Source: Yuukianura sp. NJ FZ-2021 (lineage: Eukaryota). From it: a DNA stretch of 64,000 nucleotides. The first letter of the stretch is position 1; every line of letters begins with the position of its first letter. The position numbers and the translations under genes were made by a program. Under the pieces are notes generated by a model, which had not been told where the DNA came from, did no database searches, and was given only the letters and a program-made list of their open reading frames with translations. The stretch spans positions 4,898,001 through 4,962,000 of the forward strand of contig CM102288.1 of the NCBI GenBank assembly GCA_046563655.1, in the 5' to 3' direction. Below, one piece after another: positions 19,947-64,000 of the stretch.

Positions 19947-22900
19947 TCAGTCGTCGTGATACTGACATGTGGGTAGATTGACTTGGAAGAAAACGTTCAG
20001 TTCGAAGAGGGAAGCCATGATGACGAACAGTATATAGAGGAACAGAGAAGCTAGCCCCACCTTCCTGTCCAGCACATACTTGTTGGCAGCCAGTAGAAGG
20101 TAGAGTAGTGCCAGTGACATAATAAGCATGAGGGCGGAGTACTCGAGTCCAAGCGAGTTGATCTGGATGTAAGGCTCTTTGGGGTCACTGGCCAGACGAC
20201 TCGCCTGGATCAACCATGGCAGACCAAGACATATAAGGATGTCGAACGTGTTGGACCCAATGGAGTTGGACAAAGCCATCGTACCCAGACCTAATGGCAA
20301 TTCAGTCACATTAGCACTTTTCAAAAAATTACAAGAAAAAATTATGAAAATTTCAAATTTTAAAATAATTACTGACCTTGTCGGGATACAATGAGGGACG
20401 AAACTACTTCGGGAATTGACGTTCCTGCTGCAATAAACGTGAGACCCATGATGGAGTCTGGAATCTTGAGCGTGTGACCTAGGGTCAAACAAACACTATT
20501 TAGTTTTCTTATGCACCAAACACAGTCAAAGTATAATTTGGTCCGTAGAGGTCAAAGGTCAGGTCACGGGTCACGTTACGCTCTTTCCACTTTTTACCAG
20601 CGCAATTCAGAGCTTTTGAGCTGCTGACCAAATTATTTTGACCATGGAACCATCATACTACCCAGAATTTTATGGCTACTATTGTATGGAGCCATAAACA
20701 AGTGAAAGTGAAGTGAAAGTCAGAACTTTTTAATTGAATGTCATGAATCCTCACCTATGATGGTCATCATCCAGTTGACAACGTATGACAGAATCCCAAT
20801 CCAGACAATGCACATCATAAACGTCAAAGGGAACCAAGGACGCCATCGTGGTTCACGACAGTCCGGAATTGTCAGCGTATAAGCCGCTCTGATTGGCCAG
20901 CCAATGAACCATTCCACCCAGGCTCGAAAACCACGCCCACGCGGAAACGTCGTCAGAGAAAACTCATCTAAAACAAAACAAAACCAAGAAGGTGAACATT
21001 GGATTTTGACTTTGAACTAAAAGTTTAGAACTTTGTTTTTAGTTTATGACCGGAAGTTATAAAAGAACCAACTTTTGACTTTCATAATGACTCCAATGTT
21101 TGTTCGTGCAAAGACAGAAACAGCTTCCGGAAGCTTTTTTAGCTTACCTTTCTCCTCAACTGCGTATTCCTCAGCGTGTCTCAATGCTTCTTCCACCACT
21201 TCCAACTCCTTGGCTTCACGTTCGTCGTTGTACACGTCAACTGCTTCATCAATCTGTGCTTCATCCAGGTTCTCCAGGTTCTCCAGCTTCACTTCCTCTT
21301 GACTCTGGACGCTGAGATCAGTGGGCTGGAACTTCTGGAGCTCCGCCTCATCATTGGCTACGCCCGGCGGTCGCTTAGCAACACTCTTCGGTTTTCCTCG
21401 ACAACGACGCCACTTTCGTCGCAATCGGTAAACTACCTTTTCGCATCTTCGTTTTATTTTTTCATTGTGGTACATCCCTGTAGAAAAAAAAACATAAATT
21501 AAAAAAAAATCTTGGAAATTGAATTTTGAAATTTTGAAAAGGACTGAAAAAATACCAAGGATGTAGAGACCGTAGACGCAGACGAGGATCAGAGCTTCGT
21601 ACCAGTAAATGGCTTCGTCCCGAAGACATCCAAGCAGAAGCAGGACGGAGACAGAGTAGAAGACACAGTCACGTGAAATGGAGTACCACTCCAATGGAAT
21701 GATCTAAACAAATAAACGTCCGTATTAGACAAATGTTAATGTAAACAATTCATTCATGTTAAACAAGTGTAAGTGCAAATGAGATTATCACCATTCCAGC
21801 CCCAAGTCCACACACGGCACAGACTGCCAGAATGTTGAACACTGCGCTGCCTACGATCGCTCCAATCCCAATGTCTCCTCGTGTGATGAACGTTCCGATG
21901 ATGTTGGTAAATAGTTCTGGAGCGGAGGTAGCTAAATACAGGAGATTTTAAATTCAAGTGACATTATTTTTCTCAGTGTAAGTTTAAAAGATTTAAATTT
22001 AAGAAATGTGATTGGCTACCGATGGCCATGAAAGTGGCTCCAGCAACGTCACTCGGCATCTTGAGTTCTTCGCAGATACATTCCATGGATGGTACAAAGT
22101 AGTCGTCACAGACGAGAGCCAATGCGTAGAAAATGTACAGACTCACTAGGAAGTGGACAATGACGAAACCTTGTTCCCGCTGCTGCGCAGTGAACAAATC
22201 GGGTGGAAAGTCATCGATTCCAGGCGGAGTACAACTTACTCCGGGTTCTTCCGAGTACCTTCCTCGGTGGTGCTTTTTGGAGCTGTTCAATTTATGCAAC
22301 TCATTCTCTACAAAAATTAAAAAGTAAACATTTCCAATTTCAATTTCAGAATAATTTCAAACGTTTTTAATAAGTAACGAAAGCCACTTTATGAATTCGC
22401 ATAGCCGTCCGTCTGTCGGATTCCGTAGGCAGCAATTATCTCGGAAACACCTTAACATTTCATGAATAATTTTTTACATTTGAACACAAGACGCCCTTGT
22501 TGAATGCATTCAGTGTTTAGTAGTTGACCCCCATCATCACGGTGGGTCAATTTCCTTCTGGGTCAAAGGTCATTGTCAGCTCGTTTTGTTCTCGGTGACA
22601 TGGAAAATGAAATACTACACAAAAGTTGTTTATGTCATCACAACTTTCGTGTATGTCATTCAATTGCACGGTTCAGTGGTTCATCTCTCGCTACTTCCGG
22701 TTCACCGTTTTTATTTGCATCTTAAGACTAACCTTGGTTTAAAGAATGTAGGCTGTCGAGTGGGAGTGTTTCGTTATTGACTTCATTCCCTTCGTCAGCT
22801 GAATCCTGACTCGATAGGAGTGCATCTGAATTGGCTGCTTCTGCGCAAAACGAGCCGGTGAACTTTGATACCGTGCTGTGATGTTCCACATTCCAACTGT

Positions 22901-28074: not shown

Positions 28075-29641
28075 TTACTCTAAGATATCAAATTCATTCG
28101 CGAATGCCAGCAAAAAGTGTAGTTTCCTCAAAGTCTTCGTCGCAACTTTGGAATTCAGTTTAAAAATCATTCTACTTGGAAACGATGCATGGAATGATCC
28201 ATCTGAACTTACATTTCGTTGTACGCTAGTATCGCCGAATTTTTCATTTCCGATTGAGTTTCTTGGCATATAGTGCTGGTTCTTCGAGGCAGAAGTTTTC
28301 CTAGTCGACTTGTCGACGAGTGTTGAGAATAGGCGATGGCATTCGGACATAGCCGATAAAACGTATGACCTTGACGGATGTTTGGTTGACAAAATAACTG
28401 AAAGCGGTCCTTGTAATCCACCGCTGAGAATGGAGTAAATATCCTTTTCTAATGCTCTTTCGAGTCCGGGACCACCATCCAACAGTTCCGGAATCTAAAG
28501 AAGTGAAATATAAAACGGCTGTTATCTTGAATGATTATATAAGAATAAGAAGCTACTCATCTTAATTAAAAGGTCTTACTTTGGCTGCATTTGTCTTAAT
28601 ATCAACCACCGCTTCACGAAATGATGTCAACACTGTGTCATTTGCTAAGTATGACGATAATGAAAAAAAAGCATAAGCCACTTCTCTCTGATTCGAAGCG
28701 TCGAGGAAATCTCCACCGAATAATCGTACAGTCCAAGCATAAGCCCCAACGACGTTTACGAGCCCGAATTTCACACTTTCGTTCGGTCTCATTTTCTGAA
28801 ACGTCAAAACATAAAACAACATATGATGAATATCAAAATCTGAATAACGTTGCTTCTATTTCATCCAGTAAAAATGGTTACCGTACCGTCAACGACGATA
28901 TAGTTGGAATTGGGTCTACGATGTCCGGCTGATCGTCGTGAAGCTTTGCTAGTTTTGAGTTCGGAGGACTCCTCGGACATGTCTTGGAAGCGCTGTCTTG
29001 TATCTCCTGAACTCTCTTGACAGGCAATGTCCACCATGGAATCCATTCCGGGATCGTTTCAGTAGAGTTAGTCGTTTCAACTCGGTGAACAAAGTTCCTA
29101 AAGTCCTCCCTCTCTTCTACGGTGAGATATTTCCATACTTCCTCCGGATTATCCAAACTTATACCCTCCAACCTTTTAGCCAAAGGTTCGTCGTCGTCAG
29201 AATCTAAATAAAATCAACAAGTCAACAAATCAAGTAATGACAGCGTCCGAAACCGAAGCGGTACTTTTCCCGCCCCAATTTGACAAATCCGATCCCGAAT
29301 TTCACCTTTGTTAACAAAACGTACCTTCCGCGTAATCAGTTTCACAAATGTATTCCTCGTTGAGGCGTTGAAGAATTTCCTCCATTCCCTTGACCTTCGC
29401 CGGGTCATTCTCATTGCTTAATTCCTCTTGAACACACTCCCGATAAAATTGTTCAGAACAGCCGGAATGCTTCTGCAGATTTTGATAACAGCTGAGAGAG
29501 CAGTAGGCTATTCCACATTTAGGGCAAACGTATTTTCTGTTGGCCGTGGCGCATCTACGTAATAAATAATGACACTCGATTGAATAACTGAAAATGAATA
29601 AAATGTAGAAAGTTTACTTACATTCCGCATAAATCCTCCAT
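28075..29641 (-). CDS. ZNHIT2: Zinc finger HIT domain-containing protein 2 (about 400 aa)
   Basis: Exons 29641-29622, 29554-29325, 29203-28887, 28795-28580, 28494-28075. N-terminal CGIC..YVCPKCGIAYCSLSCY..H..CSEQFY; DSDDDEPLAKRLEGISLD; WIPWW; LVNVVGAYAW. Confidence 0.85.
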
Positions 29642-29981
29642 AACAAAAACCAAGTGATATAAATAAGTGTACTGCAACGGCTGTGGAATGGCACAGAAAA
29701 CTTTCAAAAAACGAATTACACTACTGTCACAGGGGGCCGGCTATTCCGCTGATACGGTGATTGGCTGATTTGGATTCCGCGTGGCAAGGGCAACCGAAAC
29801 TACCTGCACAAAATTTTCTTACGACATTCAGAATATAACCTTATAACCTTTCGCTACTTAATAATTTCAAATATATTTTAAACCTGAAAAAGCAATAGCT
29901 ATAAACATTAACCATTTATTTTATGTTAATTTGTGAGCATTTAGTTCAAGGAAACATTGTTTCGGAAGTCAACTGCATTTT

Positions 29982-31717
29982 TCATTCATTTGCACTATTG
30001 TTCTTCTCGTTCAGTTCCTTTTGCTCCTGTAATACGCGATTCGAGGAACGAAGCATAACAGATTCCAAATTTTTAATTTTGTTGCTAAGGAATGAAAAAA
30101 GTGTTAGGAGAATCTCAACATCATAAGCTGCTCTGCACATCATTTGTACTGTTAGGGGACGAACGTGAACCCAATTGGGCTGCGTGAACTACAACAATAA
30201 TTGGAATGTCGACAATAGTTGAATTAAATACATTTGCAAAAATACAATAATTGATATTACCACATCCAGGTACGGATTGCTCGGGATGTTATAAACTTCA
30301 CATAATTTGTTCAACCCTATACAATTCCTCTCCAAACCATTTGGGGACTTAATAGCCCGATGTGCCATTTGTGTATCAAAAACTCGTTTAATTTGTATCG
30401 CGTAAGGGCGATACAGACTTGACACGGCATCTCTGCAGTCATGTACAACCTTTTAAACAAAAATGAACCAGATATGACTCATCCTTTGAATATGAAATAT
30501 GCCCTTTGAATAGAAATTTGAATGTAAATAAATCATTACCTTCACCAAGTTAGTACATTCCATAAACGTTCTGACGAAGTCGATAATTACGTCAGAGGTT
30601 AGGTCGAAAATAAAATATTCTCGAGCTTCCGTTCCAGCGTTGAGCATGCATGGTGTAACTGTACCGGAATCATCTTCAATCCACTTGATATCTACGGCGA
30701 TAAACTTCTGTTTTAGTAAGCGTTCGGTAACTTTGGCGGCTTTCTTCTTGCCGGCTACAACCACAGTTTTCTCGAACTTTGATTTCTCAACACATAAAAT
30801 AGAAAAAGGTTTCGAATCTGGACTTCGGATTTCCTCTTTTACGGAATGTGTTGAACACATTGTGGGAGTCTGTGGAGATCCGGAGTTGAACACAATATCT
30901 CTTATTTTCGAAGCGCAAATTTCCAGGAATTCCAGCGGCTGTGCAATTTTTGCCCTGAGAAGAGGATACAGCTTTACCAATGACAGCACATCACTTGCGG
31001 CATAACACATCATATCCTCCGTTAGTGGTCTTTGCTCCCAGTATCGTTGGTTTTTGGAATACTTTGAACAAAGATTACAGTGAACATAGCAAATAATAAG
31101 TAGGAAACAAATTCAAGAAATTTAATTCTTAAGTTACTTACGTCAATTTTTCCTTTGAATGGATTCGATGGTAAACCGTACATAATATTTAGGTCATTCA
31201 GTCCCAGTTTCGACCTCGGCGAATTGTTTCCATTTTTTGAGTCGATATAAATTTGAGCGAGTTTGGTGTCTACCACTTGCTGGCAAAATATTTTGTGTTC
31301 AGCGAACAAGTTTGCGACATCTGACTGGCAGTCATGCATAACCTGAAATCCAATACAAATATAAATTCGTTTGTAAGTTTGATTGGATATTGTATTACTA
31401 GAAGCTCCTTCATAAAAAACTACAGTGACAGTATACTTTTAGTGCCTCACCTTAATAACATTCGATTGTAAAAGCGTCCGTACTCCATTGTGTACTCCTC
31501 TTTGTAACATATCAAACAAAAAGACAAATCCAGCTGGGGTTGCGACTTGGACTAGTGTAACCTTGCCTAAGTAACCCAGATTAACTCCTTCGCAGTCCAC
31601 CCCTAAATACTCCTGCTTTAACAAATGATCGAGAAGAATTGTCGTCCAATTTTCATCAGTGACAAAATGCATTATGCTTCCGAGGACTTCACTTTCCAAT
31701 TTTCCAGCGCCAGACAT
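29982..31717 (-). CDS. EXD1/Egalitarian-like DEDDy 3'-5' exonuclease protein with two tandem exonuclease domains (about 461 aa)
   Basis: Exons 31717-31451, 31342-31142, 31061-30540, 30449-30261, 30188-29982, all phase 0. Domain 1: GVDCEG..LVQVAT..LFD..KVMHDCQSD..DT..WEQRPLTEDMMCYAASDV. Domain 2: AVDIKW..IFD..KVVHDCRD..FDTQ..RPLTVQMMCRAAYDV. Confidence 0.88.
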
Positions 31718-32052: not shown

Positions 32053-33617
32053 TAGGGGTAGGCATCCGGATTTTGGCTCCGGATTCAAATCCGGATTTTT
32101 GATGGATTCGGATTATCCGAAATCCGGATTTTTAAATACTGAAATCCGGATTTCTACGGATTTCAAGAGCTATTCGAGGGCATGTGCGGTATCAAAAAAA
32201 AATAGCCAACCTCAGATTTACTCAATTTCAGGGTTCGTAAAATACCGTATTTTGTATTGTTGTGCCAATGTTGTGCCAATGTTGTGCTAATGTTGTGCCA
32301 ATGTTGTGCTAATGTTGTGCTAATGTTGTGCCAATGTTGTGCTAATGTTGTGCCAATGTTGTGCTAATGTTGTGCCAATGTTGTGCTAATGTTGTGCCAA
32401 TGTTGTCCTAATGTTGTGCTAATGTTGTGCCAATGTTGTGCTAATGTTGTGCTAATGTTGTGCTAATGTTGTGCCAATGTTGTGCTAATGTTGTGCTAAT
32501 GTTGTGCCAATGTTGTGCTAATGTTGTGCTAATGTTGTGCTAATGTTGTGCTAATGTTGTGCTAATGTTGTGCCAATGTTGTGCTAATGTTGTGCCAATG
32601 TTGTGCCAATGTTGTGCTAATGTTGTGCTAATGTTGTCCTAATGTTGTGCTAATGTTGTGCCAATGTTGTGCTAATGTTGTGCTAATGTTGTGCCAATGT
32701 TGTGCTAATGTTGTCCTAATGTTGTGCTAATGTTGTGCCAATGTTGTGCTAATGTTGTGCTAATGTTGTGCCAATGTTGTGCTAATGTTGTGCTAATGTT
32801 GTGCCAATGTTGTGCCAATGTTGTGCTAATGTTGTGCCAATGTTGTGCTAATGTTGTGCCAATGTTGTCCTAATGTTGTGCTAATGTTGTGCCAATGTTG
32901 TGCTAATGTTGTGCTAATGTTGTGCCAATGTTGTGCTAATGTTGTGCCAATGTTGTGCTAATGTTGTGCCAATGTTGTGCCAATGTTGTGCTAATGTTGT
33001 GCTAATGTTGTCCTAATGTTGTGCTAATGTTGTGCCAATGTTGTGCTAATGTTGTGCTAATGTTGTGCCAATGTTGTGCTAATGTTGTGCTAATGTTGTG
33101 CCAATGTTGTGCTAATGTTGTGCCAATGTTGTGCCAATGTTGTGCTAATGTTGTGCCAATGTTGTGCTAATGTTGTGCCAATGTTGTGCCAATGTTGTGC
33201 CAATGTTGTGCTAATGTTGTGCTAATGTTGTGCCAATGTTGTGCTAAGGTTGTGCTAATGTTGTGCCAATGTTGTGCTAATGTTGTGCTAATGTTGTGCC
33301 AATGTTGTGCCAATGTTGTGCTAATGTTGTGCTAATGTTATGCCAATGTTGTGCTAATGTTGTGGCAATGTTTCATTTTTTTTTTCAACACTAGTAATTT
33401 GATTCAAAAAATAAACACGCCGAATTTATCATCAAGGTTTTAGCTACGAGTGTTTCCAACCTGCATTTCTGACACCAATATCTTAAACCAATTTTGAATT
33501 TCTTATGGGAGTTAACACAGAAATTGAAATCCGGATTTAAATCCGGACTTCAGGATTGAAATCCGTCAAAATCCGAAATCCGGATTTTAAGAAACCCGCT
33601 CCGGATTCCGACCCCTA
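32053..33617. mobile_element. Non-autonomous hAT-type element containing an internal satellite array
   Basis: TIR taggggt(a/c)gg(c/a)atccgga; perfect 8-bp TSD gtaaccac (32045-32052 / 33618-33625); multiple subterminal atccggat motifs. Confidence 0.9.
32258..33368. repeat. 11-bp tandem repeat array, (TGTTGTGCYAA)n, about 101 copies
   Basis: Directly visible; 1111 bp / 11 = 101 units. Main variants tgttgtgccaa and tgttgtgctaa, with occasional tgttgtcctaa. Confidence 0.97.
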
Positions 33618-39300: not shown

Positions 39301-42300
39301 CCGCCGACAGAGAAAGTGGCAAGAATGCTAAGGATGATGAAGATGTACGGTTGTGGTGTTAATTAAATTTTGGTTTACCCCAGCCCAGGATGACGTAGAG
39401 TGTGATTGCAGAAGAGTCAGAGAATGGCGCCAAGAAAATCAAATTGTGGAGGTAGAGGCCCTCCATCAGAATCCAAGTGTAGTTGGCCACCAGAAAATAC
39501 TCCCAGATGCTAGTCACTAATTTACACTCCCAATTCTGAAATTTCAAAAGCAACATTTCAAAAACACAGTTCCAAGAACTTTTTTTGTACTTTTTAATTA
39601 CGGATTGGTGATGTTTGAAAATGAGACTCTGATCAGAGTCGCCTTGTTGTACAGAATTAGAGAGTCCAATTCCCTCTACAAAGAGAACATGTTTGAGTAG
39701 AGATACAAATGCCCTGAGCATAAAGGACAGAAAAAGATGGATGTGCAGCGTGTTCCTGGGACAGCGCAACTTTCTAAAAACAGAAAAGAAAGAAAAGATT
39801 TGCATTAGTTGAACTTAGAGTTTGTCGGTGGTGGGGGAGGTGGTTCTCGAACCCAGCCTGGTGGCTCCATTGACTCAATTCCCACCGGAGTTTCCTCAAG
39901 CAAGCCAAACTTTCTCCGGGGACAAACACTTTCTCCTTTCTTTTTGTGGGAAAAGTCGTCGCCAAGTTCAAAATAACGAGGGAAGTGGATACCAGACTGA
40001 AGAAAAACGAAACGGAAACTTTACTTAAAAGTGACAGAGACAGAAAAGAGAAAAAAAACCCTCAACACAAGAGTCGATAGCCCTTGAGAATTCCTCTTTT
40101 TTTTCCAAAAAAACCTTGTGGTTGGTAGAAACCAAAAGTTTTATGATTAAAGGCTAACTCAATATCCTAACTTAATCTTAACCTCAACTGGTCCAAGGCA
40201 CAAGCCAATCAACGTTCAGGATTTTACTTAATGCAGGGATTTATAACCGCTGTGGACCTGAGTTAATAACCTTCAATCTCTGCCTGCGGTGAAAGTAAAA
40301 GTAGGCACTTTTGGTTTAGTTTAATATCCTAAGTATTAAGAGCGGCACAAACTTAACCTAAAAAATTTGGTTTTAGGCTTAATTTCACGTTAGATTGGAA
40401 CCAACCGAACCATATCTTTTGTAAGACATCTTGCAAGAGAAAACACTTAACCTTTCTCATGTTGGTTGAGATGAGCAAAACGAAGCGAGAAAGTCGTATT
40501 GCCACGACGGATAAAACCACCCGCAGGCTGGCAACAAAGCTTTTTAATTTAAACCAAAACCGTGTTTCAACGAAAGCCTTCAAAAAGAAAAAAAAGGCTC
40601 AATCCTTTAAAAAAAAAAGTATGCAAAATTTTTCTAAATAAAGATGCTGAGAGTGAAAACTTCTGTTGAGGAATTCTCACACAAGATAAACTGTTATGAG
40701 GAAAATAAGAACCTCACTGTACACCGTAGTCCAAATTTACTAAGGACCGCAGATCCTTAAACTTTATCCACACCGATGAAGTAACTAACCAAAATTTTTG
40801 AAACATTCTGTACTTTCATTTTCTTTGACTTTACCTCTCAAATGTTATTCTTCATTATTTTATATTTTTACAGTTTTCTTTGCCCTTCCTAACCTCGCCT
40901 AAACCTAATAACATTTCATTAAAGCAAAGTCTTCAACATAGGAAGTATAACCTAAGGAAATTGGAAATTACGATTTTTTGTTCCATGTTTGATGAAATTT
41001 TATCTTTTTTTTTATTTTTAGGACACTAGTGAAACCGTGTGGGTTGACAAGTAAAAAAAGCAGTAAATCAGGAAAAGGAAAGGCGTAGACTAAGTGCCTC
41101 TTTTGCAATTCAAAGCCTCTTCTCCTTCCGCTTCCAACCTGCAGGCGAAAAGTGGTTAAAGTATGGCGGAAACGGAAGAGGAGGAGGATGGTACAGGAAT
41201 TTAACAAAGAAGATTAGATTTCCTATCACTTTCACCAGGAAAGCAGCAGGTTTCCAAATGATAAGTGGACCCAAACGCTTTCACTTTCGACACAACTGAA
41301 TCTTACAAAGGAAAGAAATTCGTCTTGAAATCCTATTTTCGATTTTAGGTTTTCAATAAGTCTATGGATTTTAGGTTTTTGCTTGAGCACTAGAATAGTT
41401 TAGGATAATTTATTCTATCCAAAAACCTCAGACAACTTTCACTCTACTTCCGTTCTAATTTCGAGAATGAATCATTCTCGAAATTGGGATTACATCATTC
41501 TGATTGATGTACAGTTTCGATAATTGTAGTTTCACTAGCTCGCAAAGACAACCTGACCCGACGTTCCTGCGTTTATCATTTTTTGAGATTTTCTACTTCT
41601 CTAGTGTCTGTTAGAACGTTTTCATTGTTCCGTTTTACCATTTTAGTGGCGAAATCGAGTGGCACACAAAATCTACAGCTTTGTGGTTCTAAGAGGTTTT
41701 GAAAGTTAGTTGGATGTTGTGTAACTTTTTGAAATGTTTTGGTTGAAGCCTTTCTTTTAGTAATTTAAAATTTGGGAATGTAGGAGACATTGTTTGAGAA
41801 AATTGTTTTAGAAATGCATTAGAAATAATTGAGTAGGCAGCATCCAGACTGCAGCCATTATGTAGCACTCCAAGGAAAGTTAACTGACAAAGCACAGTTG
41901 CCTAACTTGGAATTTCTTGGATAAAATGCTATTGTATCCCGTAGCCTAACGAACGAGACATGGCATTAGATTAGGTTTTATAACCTAACCAGAAGGTTCA
42001 CAACCTAACCAACTCCACTCAAGGATCACTGAAGTGAAACAATCTTAACTTCCAACGCTTTTTGTCAATGTCAGTTCCCTCTTACTAAAGTATGCTTTTA
42101 CGTCAACTTAATTAACTAACATGAATGTGGTCCAAAAAGTAACTTTTCATGAAACCCTGACAGTATTTCCTCAATGGAATTTCAGTTGTTGCCTTGAATG
42201 TGTGTGATTTTTCTCGAAGTTTAGAGATTTTCCTTAAAAGTAAAATAGACAAATGTTTAATTTTATACCAAAAGTGTAGAAAATGATGTTAGAAGTAGAG

Positions 42301-45300
42301 TTGAATAAAACGTTGAAGTGTTTTGTTTAGTGAGAAAATGAGAGCGGAGATAATGGAATTGAAATGGGTAGTTTCAACGGCATTGTGTTCAAACATGTTC
42401 AAATGGACTCGTGTTGTTCTAAATCCAACTCTCTCCCTGCTATTTGGCTTTTCTTTAGAACAGTTTTTATTACATTACGCATTAAATCGGATTTGAAGCT
42501 GATCCAAAACATTTGAACTTACTTGATTGAGATCAAGATGAAGAAAGCGAGCAGAAGCGTCACAAAGGAAATGCCGTAACCAACTTGCGAAATTTTTTTG
42601 ATCACGGGAATCCATTCCTACAACAATCACAGCTTAGTTGAATAATTAGTTGAATTAGTTAATATTAGCATCTTAATTAATTAATTCAATTAAAGTTTAG
42701 TTTAAGTAGTAATATTTCAGTACCTGTAGAATGCTGGGTTCAAGACATTTGGAATAATCCGTCCAAGTGCTATTTTTATCTGGGTGAAAGTACCAGTGCC
42801 CTTCTGGTGTACAAAATTTTGAAGCTGATGCCTAAAAAATTAAGGAAAAAAATTGTTGGAATTTGAAAAAAAAAAACTTTGGCAGTTGGAACCCGAGATG
42901 ACAACTTTGACATTTTTATCCTTTGTTTCTTTTTGATTGCGTAGATTTGTAATTAAAAATAAGTAACCCCTTATTATTTTTTGGCGCGATTTCTACTTAG
43001 AGAGTGAAAGCACCAAGGGAGTTTAGAAAATTAAAGTTTTTTGACATTGAAGGAACTCCTAGCCATTCTGCTCTTTTCCCTGTTCATTAAAATTGGACTT
43101 TTTTGTGCGAGATTTCGCTAGATTGTTACCAAAAACTGCTCAACTTCTTTCTTTTTCTATTTTTTGCACTCCGAGAGCGTCGTCGTCATAATTAATCAAA
43201 TGGAGAAAAATTCCCGGGAGGAATGGGCAGAAAACTAACGACACGGTTGAAGATGACGACCCGCAGGCATGCAATCTTTATATGACGACATCATCAAACT
43301 CTAAGCGAAATTCTTCCATATTACCAAAATTTCAGTTTCTCACGCTCACTATCAAACAGTTTTTCTTTATTTCAGAAATTTTTAAATTTGAATAACTACA
43401 CACCAAACTTGCAAAATACCCGACTAAAACACTAAAAAAAATTAAGCTCAATGCTGCTTAATAATAACTATGTACATATGCAACTAGCAAAGTTTGAAGT
43501 TCGTTTGAATTAGTCGTGTTCTATTTTTCAGTGGCATCATTAATTTTCAAAGTTCGAAAACATTGTTCAAAGTTATTTCAAAGCAGAATGTGAATGTATT
43601 ATTCGACTAACTTCTACAATTAAACTCAAAGGCAAACAACGACGATTGAGATAAAGTGTTCATCTGAAAGTTAAGTCGTTTTGATTAATCAAAATTCACT
43701 GCTCAGGTCATAAATTTTTTGCTATAGACTTTCATATCGTGTTGTAACATAAGTGTTCTAACTTATCTTTAGCATGGGCACTGCACAACCTGACCAAAAG
43801 GCTACAAAGTAAAGTGACAAAAAAATTATTCACAACTTTTTTACTGCGGCCAATTCCAAGTTGTGCTGACTATTGTGTACTCTTTCCATTGTTCTTCACT
43901 TCAAAGTTTTTTTTGATGTTACTTCAATTTGGAATTCACATTTTATCTTTGCTTGTGTATAATTTTTTGTATCTGAAACGAGACAAGGCCGAAAAGCCCT
44001 CAGTTAATAAGTGCCCACTTAATTTTAGTTCACATTCTTAGTTAAAGTTTCATTCGTGATGACACGCACATCTGGTGACCAGATTCTGGTCTAAACGCTG
44101 TGTTAATATTGCAAGGCTTTGGAACTTTGTCAGTCGAATTTTGTCATTTCACTGCGCAGAAGTCATCCGAAAGTTCTGATCATGAAGCCGGCTAATCTGA
44201 GTTTGACCTTGACCTTGGTTGGTCAACTGCTGTTTCAAGCAGGTCACAGTGCCAATATTTTATTCTTTTTCCAAGTGTCCACCTACTCTCATCGGATCAC
44301 TGTTTGGCCACTGGTAGAAGCCCTGGCAGACCGCGGTCACAATGTCACATTCCATACGATCTTTCACCCGAAAGAACCGAATCCCAAAGTTCGCGAATTT
44401 TTTCCAACTTCACTTCAAGCGAAAGTCGAAGCCCAAGTTGCAGAGAGAGCAAGTTTAATGGGAAACTTTCTTAACGTTAGAATCGAACAAGGACGAACCG
44501 GTACACAGAAAATGGCTGCGGGTTTACCGGAAGCCGGACTCGGTCTCTGCACAGAGTTTCTCAATGCTCCAGAAACTCAGGAGTTCATGGCCAACGAAAC
44601 CTTTGACCTTGTCGTCATCGATGCCCTTTTTAACGAATGTGGATATGGACTTGCGCATAGATTTGGCGCCAAAAGTATAATTTTTGACACTACACATCCG
44701 TTTTCATGGGTGCAGGAAGCTATGGGCGTGGTAGAAGATACTTCGGTTTTTTCCGAATTCCACATTTCTTATGCCATCCCGATGAACTTTTTACAGAAGG
44801 TCATGTCAACTCTGATCATTCTAGGAATATACCAGTACAAAGTGTGGTTCTACTATCCACTACTAGATGACCTCTTCAGGTCAAAGTTCAACGACCCCGA
44901 GATGCCCGGTATTGCTGAACTGGAACAAAAAGCAAGTTTGGTGCTGTTCAATAGTCACTTTAGTGAGGAGGAAGCGAGGTCACTCCCGCCTGTTTTTGTG
45001 CCGGTTGGAGGACTACATTGCGCATGGGCCCAGGGCAAAACGATTGACAACAAAAGAGTGCCGCCTGTAAGCAAAAATTTGAAAATTCTGGCAGTTCAAA
45101 AATAATCTCAAAATTTTAAAGCCGAATTTTTACAAATGTGTAGGCAATTTCAAAATTTATAAAAGACGCGGGGAACAAGGGATTCATCTACGTTAGTTTT
45201 GGAAGTGAAGTTTTACTTGGTCCGTCACCGCCAGAATTTCAGGACATTTTTTACAAAGTTTTTGCGGAAATCGATTTACCGATTTTATGGAAGTGGGAAG

Positions 45301-48300
45301 GCCCCCGCCCTAAAAATATGCCAAAAAACGTTATGACGGCTGATTGGATGCCACAACAAGAAATTCTAGGTAAAATTCATTTTTTTTTTGTAAATTTCGA
45401 ACTTTTTTTTCAATATCAACAAAATTTTGAATTGACCCAGCATCAAAAAACTGTCGTGTGTTTATAACCCATGGTGGACTGTTGGGAATGCAAGAAGCCG
45501 TGTCCAGTGGCGTCCCGATGATTTCAATGCCGGTTTTTGCCGAACAAGACTATAATTCTTTTCGACTAGAACGAACTGGAAGGGGCATCAAAATTGAAGC
45601 AAGTACGCTGACAAAGCAAATTCTTCGTGACGCAATTCACAAAATTTTAACAGATCCGTCGTAAGTCCAGAAGTTGTTTGAAAATTATATTTGAAATTCG
45701 AAAAAAAAAGTTAAAGTATTTTTTGATTTAGTTACAAGAAAAACGTTGAAGAGGTTTCAAGGTTATTTAAAGACCGACCGCAGACACCTCTAGAGACGGC
45801 ACTGTACTGGACTCAGTACGTTCTTCGGAACAAAGACACTTCGGCGTTGCGACCTACGCATGCGCAGAAACTGTTCTGGTTCCAGCGCCGTCACCTTGAC
45901 ATATGGGCCTTCATTTTCATAGCTTTGTTCATAGTGTTGTTCATCATGTTCCGAATTAGTACGGGATTGTGGCACTGTTTCTTTCCCAAATCAAAAGCAA
46001 CACAGTCAAAACCAAAAGTCAAAAAGAATTAACCAAATTGTGTTTTAAAGATTTAAAAAAATGAGCGTGTTAATTAAAATTTTAGCTTTGACTAGTAGTA
46101 CAAGGTTAACAGGATCGTGCAGCAATACTCCCAACATTTTTACTTGAATCTTTTTCATGTCTAATTAACTCAACATTTAGTAACTAAAAAACGATTTACG
46201 TTGTTACAAAACATTCTTTTGCAAGTTGTTGCTTGCAAAAGGCATTTTTTCCCGAAATGCAACAATTTCCTTGTGATGTCTTAATCTCCTTAGTTAAGGC
46301 CGTTGTCCTTTGGCCAACTTTTGGCAAAGTAAATATTGTTATCAGTTTTAGTCGTTTTGCATTTTCAGTGTTCCACAGGTCTTCCAGCAGTAGCCGTCGA
46401 TTAGCCTTGTTTTGTCTTTTCCAAAAAAAAAAAAAACTGTGAAGTATTTTGAAGAGTTCCTTCTACTATTTCTTTTCCGTAAAATGGAACTTTGGAGATT
46501 TAGCACATTGGTGGTGCTGCTCTTTTGCGCTCATTCATCTGAGAGTGCCAATATCTTATTCTATTTTGGCGTGTCCACCTACAGTCATCGAATAATAGTT
46601 TGGCCTTTGGTTGAAACCTTGGCAGCCCGAGGTCACAATGTCACTTTTCTGTCACCCTATCCAACCAAGGAGCTCGATCCGAATCAGAATGTCACCGAAA
46701 TGGCTCCAACTGAACTTACAGACTTCATGACATTCTATTTAGGACAAGAGTCTGACATGATCCTGGAGCGGACAAAAGGAAACCACCGAGCCGTTTGGAA
46801 CTTGTTGCCATTTCTGGGTACCGAGTCGTGTAAAGTGTTTCTGGGCATTCCATGGGTTAAGGAGTGGATACACAAGAACCACTTTGACCTGGTTGTGATT
46901 GACGGGGTCAGCGGTGAATGCGGGATGGGGTTAGCCCATAAGTGGGGGTCAAGGGTCATGATTTACAAAACCAGCACAGTTTTCCCCTGGGAGTATGATC
47001 TTCTGGGGATTCCGGTCGAGTCGTCATGGATACCAGATCCAACGTACCATTTTGACCAAGACATGCCCTTCTGGAAGAGAGTGTTCAACAGTTGGTTACC
47101 AGTGTACAACTACTTGTACCACAGGTGAGTTACCGAATTTTTCCCAAACCACTTTAAAAACATAACCTTTTACGTAACATTAGGTGGGTATACCATCCAC
47201 AACTGGAGGCCATATTGAGAAGTGGACTGGACATGCCAAATATGCCACCAATGTATGACTTGTTTGGGAACGTGTCTCTGGTCCTCATGAATGCAGACTA
47301 CACAACGGACTATGCCAGGTCACTTCCACCATTGCATGTCCAGGTACCCGGAATGCTCATGTATGGTTCAAAGGTCAAACAGATTCCAGAGGTAAGCTCA
47401 ATGCTAACACAAAAATTTTATTCGCCAATATGATTCAATAAGGTTGGTAATGCCCAGAATAAACTTTTCAGGAAATGTTAAGGTTCGTTGAGTCCGCTGC
47501 CGACGGATTCATTTATTTCAGTTTCGGAACTGCAGGTAAATCTTTCTTTTTCACTCCAACCAAAATTTGAGCAAAATCTATGAAAATTCGGTACAAATTC
47601 TTCATTTCTAGTTCAAATTTCCAAAATGGAGCCAGCGACACAAAAGATTTTTTTCAACGCTTTTAGAAATTTAGCTCCGCTGAAGTTCCTTGTCAAGTAT
47701 GAGCTGGATCAACCCCCACCTGAAATGTCGCAGAACGTGTTTACGGCAAAATGGATGCCGCAGCAGTCGATTCTGCGTCATCCAAAATGTCGTGGATTCA
47801 TTACACACGGTGGCCTTGGCGGAATTCATGAAGCCGTAGCATACGGCGTCCCGTTGATAGTCATGCCGATCTTTGCTGATCAAGATTACAATGCAGAGAG
47901 AATTGCTAGAATTGGGCATGGAATTAAACTGGAAATCCTGACTCTGAAGCAATCGGAACTGGAGTCGGCCATTAAAAACATAACGCAAGATCCTAGGTAA
48001 CTTTGAAAAAGAAAAAACTGAGTTTGAAAAAAAAAATAAAAATTGAATTGGTTTTTAAGTTTCAAGGTCCGAAGTGATGAACTTTCAACTTCCCTCAAAG
48101 ATCGCCAAAATAATCCACTGGAAACTGCCGTTTGGTGGACAGAGAAGGTCCTGCGCAGTTCTACCTTTGACCTGTCGCTTCTGCGACCTCTTGGACGAAA
48201 TCAACAATTTTTTGTCCGAAGATCCCTTGACACTTTCCTGTTCATGTTCCTGCTTACACTTTCTCCTATTGTAATACTCATCCTTGTTCTAAAACGATTT

Positions 48301-61093: not shown

Positions 61094-61950
61094 TCAACGA
61101 AGGGAGTATGCGCTAGCCTCGCTTGTCAACAGGTCTTCATAATCGGGTGGCACTGAAAACATTAATATTAGTATTACGTGAAAATATATTCGATGTTATA
61201 CACAAAAAAATCCTTTTGTGCATACATGTTTCAAGTGAGCCTGAGAACGTTTCGGCTCGCGACGCGATAGAATCCAGAGAAAGCGAAGAGTAGCGTGGAG
61301 GTCCAAGGATGCTCAAACTTGGACTTGTAAGAATACTCGTTTCTCGAATGCCCAGTGACCTGCTTACATCCTCCGAACGATGGCTGGGGGTCAGCGACAT
61401 TTCAGTAAGCTGTTGAGGCTGCGTTCTGTGTGGTACACGACTAAACGTATACTCAATCCTGATGGGATACTCCTCGCTCAAAATAGAATAACTCTCACAC
61501 GCCGCACCAATCTGAGCAGAAAAATATTAGTGGTAATCCTTCACCTTTGACCTCGATGTGACCTACCTGTAAAACATAGTTGTTGTCAATGACATTCAAC
61601 ATGGGAGGATCCCAAGTGTGCAGAGTGGGCATGATGACTTCCGGAATTTTCAGAAACCCAAACCAACTAGTTTCGTGGAAGCCGGGAGCTGAGGCTTCTT
61701 CGGCGACATTTCGCGTTTCCGTTTTAAACGCTTTTGCTGGATTCGAGGATGGTTTTCTTTTCCTCTGCGAAACTGTAATTGACTTTTGGATCAGCGTAAC
61801 AACGAGGAATTCAAATAAAACTGATCCGTTAGGATTTTCAATTTGAACTTCAAACGGAATGTGATCTCCTGGATGAAAAGTTGTTCTAGGTAACAACAAT
61901 GTGAGTCTAAACTCAGATGACCTATGTGACAAAAGTTTACCGGTTGACAT
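61094..61950 (-). CDS. Alpha-arrestin-like protein: Arrestin_C domain plus PY tail only (about 242 aa)
   Basis: Exons 61950-61567, 61511-61226, 61152-61094, phase-consistent. LPRTTFHPGDHIPFEVQIEN..VTLIQ..LKIP..PT..VIDNNYVLQI; PPRY and LPPDY motifs. Confidence 0.72.
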
Positions 61951-62455
61951 TTTAAACAAATATTTTCTTATAACTTGTTCTAAACAGGTCCGAATTTTCT
62001 ACCTACAGTTTTCGTTTCCTCGTTAAAGCTACAAGGCAAAGTGTAGGGAGTTATTGATTTTTCTACGGCTTGGTCTAAAAAGCTGAATCTCTCCTAAGGA
62101 GAAGCGCCAACGCATGTACTATATGTTTCGGTTTTTACCGCAGACTCAATACATTGATCTAATTACTTCACTTGTACTATTATTATTGGAGTTGGTCAAA
62201 GAAAAGCATATAGTTTATTACTTTCCGGATAGTCCACTCAAAGGAAAACTAAAAGCTTATTTAGAATTACTCGTAAATTAAGTTTTATCTAACTACCTAA
62301 CACGGATGTCTGTCGACGGCGATCCCTCAGGAATTTGTTTAATAATCGTGTTGTTATTTTAATTATGTACAGACTGTAGACGGGGCTAAAAGATCCTTCC
62401 ATTATCAATAACCATTCACGCGAAATTCAGCATTCAGCTTTCATCTGACTTTGTC

Positions 62456-63222
62456 CTAATCGAGCCACGATTGCTCCACGCAGGCCTTGACCCGCTTTTC
62501 ATACTCTCGTCGATTCTCCTTGTAGAGCTGGGCTGCCATAGAGTTAGCCGGAGAGTTAGGGTTCGGATCGCTAAGTAATGACTGAATAGAGGTGACTGCA
62601 AACGAAATTAAAAACAGTTAGGTACAATTCTTCTTGAATTGCAGTAATGGCTCTGGGTTCAGAGGAAAAAAATGATGGAGAAATATTCGAACTCTTACGA
62701 ATGGCTGAGACGTCGTACGTTGGACTCCAACGATTTTGAAGAATGTCCAGGCAAATCGCCCCGTCAGCATCTGTCCAAAAAAGACAAGTTCATTAAAAAT
62801 TGTGCATTCCTAAAACCAGTAGATCGTGTAAAGCATCGCCGTAATATCTCGAGCAAAAGTATCTCTACAAAAATATCTGGATTCGAATAGGTTGGGTAAG
62901 AGATATTTCAAGAGATATTTTTGGAAGATATGATGGCAATGACGCGACGCGTCATTGACGCGTCTTCATTCGTCTTACAAACGTTTGGATGAAACAATTT
63001 GGATACGAATCGAACAGTGGGTGGCTTATTAGGATATTCTTCAGTAAATTCAACGGAGAGTTTAAAAGTTCCATCCTCGAAGGGAGTTTCATGCGGGCCA
63101 AAGATGATGGCGTTCCAGAGCATAATGTTGTTGTCAGTCGGAGCACCACTCACTCCAGCCGGAGGATCTTCTTGCAGTTTCTTAAAATCACGCATAAGCC
63201 GACGTCTTGCTGGAGTCGACAT
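62456..63222 (-). CDS. UBE2A: Ubiquitin-conjugating enzyme E2, RAD6/UBE2A/UbcD6 orthologue (151 aa)
   Basis: Exons 63222-62979, 62770-62699, 62595-62456: [21 protein letters not shown]...[25 protein letters not shown]...VEQSWLD*. Confidence 0.97.
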
Positions 63223-64000
63223 CCTCGTAAGTTCCAAACGGCCTAGCACTGCCCTATCACAAAGAACTCGCTGCGGAATAGAAGAAAAGATCTGAAAAAC
63301 AGAAACAGGCATACAGTTAGACGTTGAACCAACGGGAATTGAATTATTCGCGTTTCCATTTTTCCCCGATCATTATTGCGATAAGAAACCCGCTTGGGAT
63401 GTGTTAACCATAATGCGTAGTATACTGCGCAAGTATACGTACCTTTATTACGTATACTTTTATTACGGACGGTAGTACTTTTATTACGGACGGGGAAGAG
63501 ACTCTGGTTAAATTTTCAGAAAAACTCTAAAGTTTTAGAAACTAAAGCGAGAAAGTGACTACAAATTAGGTAAGATTACTAGGTTATTACGACGCTTTTC
63601 CTGAAGCCACTTCGCCAGTCAACTAAACTTTAGGGCTTTTCTCTTGGTACTTAGGTGTAATCGGTGTCGTAATTCCCTTCGGACGCAGAGTAGTGGAATT
63701 TCAATGGAATTTACTAGAACTTACGGTGCCAAATTCGTCAAGGTTAAGGTTGTATTTGGTAGTTTGGTTGAATCACCTGATCGACTGCTCAACAGCTACT
63801 AGGTTATTCGTGTTTTAAGTGAACTAGAGTGGATGCCTGAGATTCAAATAGGCAAAATCGATTAGTTGTGTAAAAACTAAACGATGGATTGATGTGATTA
63901 ACTGTTATTTGTTTCTCAGGATTTCCAAATATGAAACGGAAAGGGAAGAGTGATTCACAAACATCTTTCGTCGTCGTTTAGTGTGTCCTCCTAGAACACC

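Follow-up and report, generated by a model that had tools for sequence, protein, structure and literature searches.

Two tandem Egalitarian-type exonuclease domains, one with a complete and one with a degenerate catalytic site, in a predicted gene of Yuukianura sp. NJ FZ-2021

A predicted gene in Yuukianura sp. NJ FZ-2021 raises the question of what a single protein chain would do with two copies of an Egalitarian-type exonuclease (EXO) domain, one with a complete and one with a degenerate catalytic site. In Egalitarian (Egl) and EXD1 a nuclease fold has been turned into an RNA adaptor, and in these known cases the paired domains come together by separate assembly, Egl being paired on the BicD dimer and EXD1 by way of a dimerisation hook. 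The gene lies on contig CM102288.1 of assembly GCA_046563655.1, within a stretch of 64,000 nucleotides (nt) at positions 4,898,001 to 4,962,000 of the forward strand, which is referred to here as the window and whose numbering is used throughout. The favoured reading, with the chances for and against it about evenly balanced, is that of a single gene with two tandem Egl-type EXO domains, in which domain 1 would bind and probably trim RNA 3' ends and domain 2 would be a non-catalytic partner. The arrangement is unlike that of any relative found here, the searches for relatives in the sequence libraries having been made with single exons as queries.

For the gene model, positions 32300 to 29500 of the minus strand were spliced at the sole canonical sites that keep the frame. 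The predicted gene, compact and of insect type, runs from 31717 to 29982 on the minus strand, 1.74 kb, in five exons that join into an open frame of 461 amino acids (aa) followed by TGA. The ATG is at 31717-31715 and the TGA at 29984-29982, both on the minus strand, with an in-frame stop four codons 5' of the predicted ATG. The earlier note on this DNA, made from the letters alone, was exact in its coordinates from ATG to TGA, and the single 461-aa open frame that it described is borne out by the spliced five-exon model. All exon lengths are multiples of three, all four introns are GT..AG and in phase 0, and the GC content is 41% in the exons and 27% in the introns. The features of the gene are given below with the motifs ExoI, ExoII and ExoIII and with the positions matched in the Pfam profile PF01612 (RNase D/Rrp6/WRN-exo).

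31451..31717, minus strand: exon 1, residues 1-89, with the start codon and domain 1 ExoI; PF01612 profile positions 2-75.
31597-31595 (D41) and 31591-31589 (E43), minus strand: ExoI residues in exon 1, aligned with Egl D561 and E563 (9uju).
31343..31450, minus strand: intron 1, 108 nt, phase 0, GT..AG, at the K89/V90 junction (VIK, then VMHD).
31142..31342, minus strand: exon 2, residues 90-156, with domain 1 ExoII (D97 at 31321-31319); PF01612 profile positions 80-123.
31062..31141, minus strand: intron 2, 80 nt, phase 0, GT..AG, ending before Y157.
30540..31061, minus strand: exon 3, residues 157-330, holding domain 1 ExoIII, the linker and the domain 2 ExoI region without interruption; PF01612 profile positions 138-172.
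31004-31002 (Y176) and 30992-30990 (D180), minus strand: domain 1 ExoIII residues in exon 3.
30692-30690 (D280) and 30686-30684 (K282), minus strand: domain 2 ExoI-region residues in exon 3.
30450..30539, minus strand: intron 3, 90 nt, phase 0, GT..AG, at the K330/V331 junction (LVK, then VVHD), the same domain position as intron 1.
30261..30449, minus strand: exon 4, residues 331-393, with the domain 2 ExoII region (A338 at 30428-30426); PF01612 profile positions 80-128.
30189..30260, minus strand: intron 4, 72 nt, phase 0, GT..AG, ending before F394, the same domain position as intron 2.
29982..30188, minus strand: exon 5, residues 394-461 and TGA, with the domain 2 ExoIII region and a 26-residue tail; PF01612 profile positions 143-172, E 0.074.
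30134-30132 (R412) and 30122-30120 (D416), minus strand: ExoIII-region residues in exon 5.
29915..29920, minus strand: AATAAA, 62 nt after the stop codon, a likely polyadenylation signal as judged from sequence only.

The coding DNA of each half was subjected to 20000 mononucleotide shuffles. None remained open (mean of 14-16 stops), and the other two frames of each half contain 11-17 stops. Because all of the shuffles were closed and the alternative frames are ridden with stops, the frame is gene-like rather than a product of chance.

Two EXO domains are recognised in this chain. A local profile, built from the EXO segments of 120 Egalitarian-type proteins and run on the spliced chain with a search space of one, gave two near-full-length matches (E 1.5e-49 and 6e-31), which define the following parts.

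30930..31621, minus strand, spanning introns 1 and 2: domain 1, residues 33-200, Egl-type EXO with a complete DEDDy set; 154.0 bits.
30750..30929, minus strand: linker, residues 201-260, 27% Ser/Thr/Pro, isoelectric point 8.9, with a Lys-rich end and an in-frame Met, M224, at 30860-30858.
30063..30749, minus strand, spanning introns 3 and 4: domain 2, residues 261-435, diverged EXO with D-K-A-R-D at the catalytic positions; 93.3 bits.

PF01612 is matched by all five exon translations, collinearly and twice over, exons 1 to 3 covering the profile once and exons 4 and 5 returning to it. The Pfam cut-off of 23.6 bits is exceeded by exon 3 only (30.2 bits), exon 4 being short by 0.1 bit; the remaining exons fall below the cut-off because each is a fragment of a domain. 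The earlier note had claimed two complete DEDDy-type domains in one chain and had expected two hits to PF01612. Both are borne out, the second as exon-wise matches in order twice and as two full-length matches to the local profile. The N- and C-terminal thirds of domain 2 are assigned as its probable ends through their likeness to domain 1 and through the local profile. Exon 3 leads from domain 1 through the linker into domain 2 without a stop, and no further copy of the domain was found in the 64-kb window.

The two copies differ in their catalytic residues. Mapping was done through the solved Egl chain 9uju, in which position i is Egl residue 511+i, as checked on D561 and E563. The available part of the Egl structure preprint gives the catalytic residues of Egl as Asp561, Glu563, Asp621, Tyr704 and Asp708. 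When aligned to an RNase D-like protein and to Egl, domain 1 has the complete DEDDy set, D41, E43, D97, Y176 and D180. The equivalents in domain 2 are D280, K282, A338, R412 and D416, so that two of the five are kept and three are changed (E to K, D to A and Y to R). Domain 1 had been said to keep ExoI D-x-E, an ExoII 'HD' and ExoIII YxxxD; the first and third stand, while the Asp of 'HD' is the wrong one, as it aligns with Egl Asp617, an RNA contact, and the catalytic ExoII Asp lies four residues further. It is at this further position, that of Egl Asp621, that domain 1 has D97 and domain 2 has A338. The two losses that had been reported for domain 2 (E to K and Y to R, in frame) were correct, with the count now raised to three by the ExoII change.

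Within the wider nuclease family, both domains belong with Egalitarian and not with EXD1. Among solved structures, exons 1 to 4 have Drosophila Egl as their closest relative (E 1.3e-7, 9e-6, 3.6e-6 and 2.9e-10). Bombyx EXD1 is among the solved-structure matches for exon 4 only, and exon 5 gave no match to EXD1 chains in that search. Rrp6 and RNase D chains showed weak similarity (E 0.05-0.9). In a comparison of 126 proteins, domain 1 shares 38-43% identity with insect Egl EXO domains over 166-188 aa (E about 1e-37), and domain 2 is about as distant from Egl (29-35%, E down to 3e-25) as it is from domain 1 (36%, 7e-26). The label EXD1/Egl-like given in the earlier note is therefore retained in its Egl half, Egl being the best solved relative of exons 1 to 4, and dropped in its EXD1 half, since there is no Lsm domain and domain 1 keeps the DEDD residues.

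The domains share with Egl (PDB 9uju, 9rvy) the DEDDy EXO domain type, and domain 1 also has its five catalytic residues and N566, Y685 and Q689. The differences are in the rest of the chain. Egl has one EXO domain in about 700-1000 aa, whereas there are two here in 461 aa. The winged-helix domains, BicD-binding N-terminus, Lys-rich linker helix and helical domain of Egl were not found in this protein. The Egalitarian winged-helix profile PF23713, present in most of the best 120 of the 602 profile matches described below, is matched by none of the exons within an E-value of 1, and the chain has just 40 residues before ExoI. No winged-helix or LOTUS-like domain was seen in the exon-wise Pfam scan, in agreement with the missing LOTUS-like N-terminus noted before. 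The charged linker helix and helical domain of Egl (EHD) follow neither EXO domain in the alignment, in which the Egl-type sequences run on past their EXO domain into a conserved stretch rich in Lys and Arg. Egl orthologues have a median branch of 0.13 changes per site, as against 4-5 for the domains here.

With EXD1 (Bombyx 5fiq/5fis; mouse) the protein shares the broad Egl-like EXO subfamily and the presence of two cores. According to the part of Yang et al. 2016 (PMC4712191) that was available, the N-terminal Lsm domain of EXD1 binds Tdrd12; none was found here, as exon 1 has no Lsm-type Pfam match and ExoI, at residue 41, comes too early for such a domain to precede it. The DEDD residues lost in EXD1 are kept in domain 1, and three of the five are lost in domain 2. 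EXD1 forms a homodimer via a C-terminal three-helix hook, with its cores pointing apart, in contrast to the covalent linker here. For RNase D/Rrp6/WRN-exo, the RNase D-like protein P0004 aligns with domain 1 at ExoI D-x-E, the ExoII Asp and ExoIII Y-x3-D. This group differs in that the HRDC domain is absent here, and a second, inactivated copy of the domain is present in the chain. The protein is neither an Egl orthologue nor a canonical EXD1, and beyond its two EXO domains it contains no other known domain.

The halves of the chain (residues 1-215 and 216-461) have 61 of 169 residues identical by blastp (36%, E 1e-27). In the alignment to the local profile, introns 1 and 3 share one column, K followed by V directly before the HDC motif, and introns 2 and 4 share another, before the aromatic Y157/F394 that is aligned with Egl Tyr685. 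In an alignment that includes P0004 and two Egl orthologues, an LLKQ motif just ahead of ExoI is common to both halves and is absent from the four other sequences. Because the halves are 36% identical and both intron pairs are at equal positions in the domain, the duplication was one of genomic DNA with its introns. The unit was the whole EXO domain with its two introns, with the junction of the copies now inside exon 3. Both pairs of equivalent phase-0 introns in the earlier note were correct. Its proposal of an intragenic duplication stands as far as the copying of a genomic segment with introns is concerned, while a single genome does not distinguish an internal duplication from a tandem duplication of the gene with later fusion.

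DNA contigs were compared with the gene from run X1, of the window's own organism, and from run X5, of a closely related organism B at a depth of about 3-4. The X5 contig covering 31193-31571 has 26 listed differences, of which 19 are in intron 1 (108 nt) and seven in 271 exon nt; its three insertions are all in that intron. Five X5 differences cluster in the linker, at 30789-30808. No exon insertion or deletion is among the differences listed for either run, and the coding changes listed, 14 for X5 and seven for X1, do not include one that creates a stop. The X5 pattern supports coding constraint in general.

The residues that contact RNA in Egl bear on what each domain might do. They were tallied over 16 alignable EXO-domain contacts taken from the available part of the Egl preprint, as the alignments are read here. 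Domain 1 keeps 11 of the 16 (E563, G564, N566, L567, H616, D617, K659, L663, K678, Y685 and Q689 in Egl numbering). Among them are E563, N566, Y685 and Q689, the contacts that in the same source keep the 3' OH and the terminal base pair in place. In domain 2 five are kept (H616, D617, R619, Q640 and L663), and there are conservative changes at two more, Phe at Egl Y685 and Asn at Egl Q689. Most of the Egl 3'-end pocket is lost in domain 2, yet its frame is open and it looks folded. Both domain cores are near neutral, with a net charge of +1 each.

A genomic EXO unit with two introns was duplicated, and its copies became fused inside the present exon 3. Under the favoured reading, domain 1 would bind, and probably trim, RNA 3' ends; it is taken as the RNA 3'-end-binding half because its metal-binding set is complete and most of the Egl residues that grip a 3' end are retained. 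By analogy with the second subunit of dimeric DEDD nucleases and of EXD1 homodimers, domain 2 may be a non-catalytic partner that offers a second RNA-binding surface or a protein-docking surface. The chain would then join covalently what is paired by assembly in EXD1 homodimers and in two Egl on BicD. The covalent pseudo-dimer of the earlier note, with its suggested small-RNA or RNA-trimming role, may in that case apply. The protein is not expected to take part in Egl-BicD/dynein or EXD1-Tdrd12 complexes in the known way, because the parts that tie Egl and EXD1 to them are lacking. If so, one could picture a fused DEDDy heterodimer, restricted to its lineage, in which the dead half has become a specificity module that brings particular RNAs to the live half, be they precursors of small RNAs or structured 3' ends. 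This extension is speculative and unlikely. If true, it would be a new single-chain 3'-end trimming factor derived from the Egalitarian EXO domain, independent of BicD/dynein and of Tdrd12/PIWI. A complete and a degenerate copy in one natural chain would also be a simple case in which to ask whether any Egl-type EXO domain is an active nuclease, a point left open in the available part of the Egl structure preprint, and what a pseudo-nuclease half contributes to the choice of substrate. The locus may in addition be an example of a new gene made by internal duplication within a fast-evolving RNA-pathway family.

Several points weigh against the favoured reading. Retention of the DEDDy residues does not show activity, since Egl is reported to keep all five and yet to bind RNA and work in vivo when they are mutated. 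The N-terminal third of domain 2 has no Pfam stretch in the exon-wise scan, and neither exon 5 nor the N-terminal part of domain 2 alone gave a meaningful solved-structure match. In a maximum-likelihood tree of 28 EXO domains, where the median branch is 0.13 changes per site, those of the two domains measure 4.05 and 5.31; the tree settles the place of neither and could not show the two to be each other's closest relatives. The listed coding changes in X5, with parts of the gene uncovered, are four synonymous and three non-synonymous in domain 1 and one of each in domain 2; these are too few, and the depth is too low, for any statement on the ratio of non-synonymous to synonymous rates (dN/dS) per domain.

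The main rival is that both domains are non-catalytic and that the protein is a two-site RNA adaptor, which would hold two structured elements or two sites as two Egl do on a BicD dimer, with the DEDDy residues of domain 1 retained unused as in Egl. This is possible, if doubtful. Both domains are closest to Egl, and the available part of the Egl preprint reports that Egl retains all five catalytic residues, that their mutation spares both the binding of RNA and function in vivo, and that dimeric BicD organises two Egl RNA-recognition sites. In the same direction, the nuclease-like core of EXD1, which acts as a homodimer in the piRNA pathway, is reported to bind single-stranded RNA without cleavage (Yang et al. 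2016, PMC4712191, as far as available). However, the charged linker helix and helical domain, which make much of the RNA contact in Egl, are missing after both domains here, the two cores are near neutral, and only five of the 16 Egl contacts remain in domain 2.

It has also to be considered that the gene is the EXD1 orthologue of a lineage in which EXD1 evolved fast, lost its Lsm domain and had its nuclease-like domain duplicated, to give a homodimer in one chain that acts in piRNA biogenesis. This overlaps with both the favoured reading and the two-site adaptor, and is improbable. In the available part of Yang et al. 2016 (PMC4712191), EXD1 is described as fast-evolving and homodimeric, with a reduced form without the Lsm domain in drosophilids. 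Domains 1 and 2 are on very long branches, and the three top Atlas clusters for exon 3 include one with the name 'protein Exd1 homolog' (score 0.90). Against this, Yang et al. 2016 report that EXD1 orthologues throughout the animals have not conserved the DEDD residues, all of which are kept in domain 1, and Bombyx EXD1 matches one of the five exons, with an E-value of 1.2e-3 against 2.9e-10 for Egl.

The two-domain architecture was sought elsewhere with the single-exon queries. In the word-indexed protein search, none of 655 candidates scored for exon 3 reached E<=0.001 and none of 157 candidates for exon 1 reached E<=0.01. A phmmer search with exon 3 against 1.84 billion representatives gave nine matches within E<=0.001. 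Their lowest E-value is 2.2e-5, and no match reached <=1e-10. A second domain is present in none of these nine, eight of which have one PF01612 stretch and one of which has none. A profile search gave 602 matches, of which the best 120 are all of Egl type; the Egl orthologues among these show that the searched library includes many insect proteomes. No genuine two-domain protein was found among nine scanned from the best 120 of the 602 matches. Scans of metagenomes with exon 3, and with an alignment of exon 2 and exon 4, found no relative, and the literature searched held no description of a tandem, double or pseudo-exonuclease Egl-like architecture. The earlier note had allowed that the architecture might already be common or described; with these queries, neither a two-domain relative nor a description came to light. 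This means that there is no close orthologue in the searched libraries and is not proof that the architecture is unique.

One candidate from these searches had two PF01612 stretches. The protein P0010, named as a Popillia japonica 3'-5' exonuclease of 846 aa, has a second stretch that is an exact self-repeat, and it was rejected as an artefact of assembly or annotation because about 200 residues (EXO domain and tail) are exactly repeated. Its profile score is inflated by this repeat.

The remaining rival, that there is no working two-domain protein here and that the gene is an unexpressed or recently dead duplicate or makes domain 2 separately from an internal start such as M224, could draw on the lack of an orthologue in very large protein libraries, the high divergence of domain 2 and that in-frame Met in the linker, but is very improbable given five open exons with canonical splice sites, halves of which no shuffle stayed open, exons that differ far less than intron 1 from the X5 relative with no exon insertion or deletion among the differences listed, no stop between the domains, and an AATAAA after the final stop only.

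Some contigs from X1 and X5 match the gene over just 46 nt, at 31010-31055, which encode the conserved motif around domain 1 ExoIII. They turn unlike at 31055, adjoining the exon 3 boundary, and their loose ends are alike in X1 and X5. These partial matches may stem from another locus of the genome, a paralogue whose intron lies at the corresponding position.

Other genes are present in the window. The downstream neighbour on the same strand is a HIT zinc finger exon at 29311-29613 (minus strand; PF04438, E 5e-6), about 300 nt past the TGA of the exonuclease gene and part of the next gene. On the plus strand, 44107-48000 contains two or more UDP-glycosyltransferase genes in tandem, with PF00201 in 44107-45105 and 47584-48000. 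A similar UDP-glycosyltransferase-like N-terminal exon at 46394-47128 (plus strand) has no Pfam match. Further exons are the following.

39359-39814, minus strand: exon of a secretin-family seven-transmembrane receptor, PF00002.
19947-20495, minus strand: exon of a Na/Ca exchanger, PF01699.
61495-61998, minus strand: exon of an arrestin-like protein, PF02752.
62908-63369, minus strand: exon of a ubiquitin-conjugating enzyme, PF00179.

None of the neighbouring genes suggests a functional link to the exonuclease gene, and scans of the window found no Rfam families or tRNAs. A repeat array of 1.1 kb is present at 32258-33372, about 540 nt upstream of the start codon of the exonuclease gene, made up of about 101 copies of an 11-nt unit (plus-strand consensus TGTTGTGCTAA, 92% matches). 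Between this array and the gene, inspection by eye shows a short palindromic motif around ATCCGGAT, repeated several times within 32060-32180.

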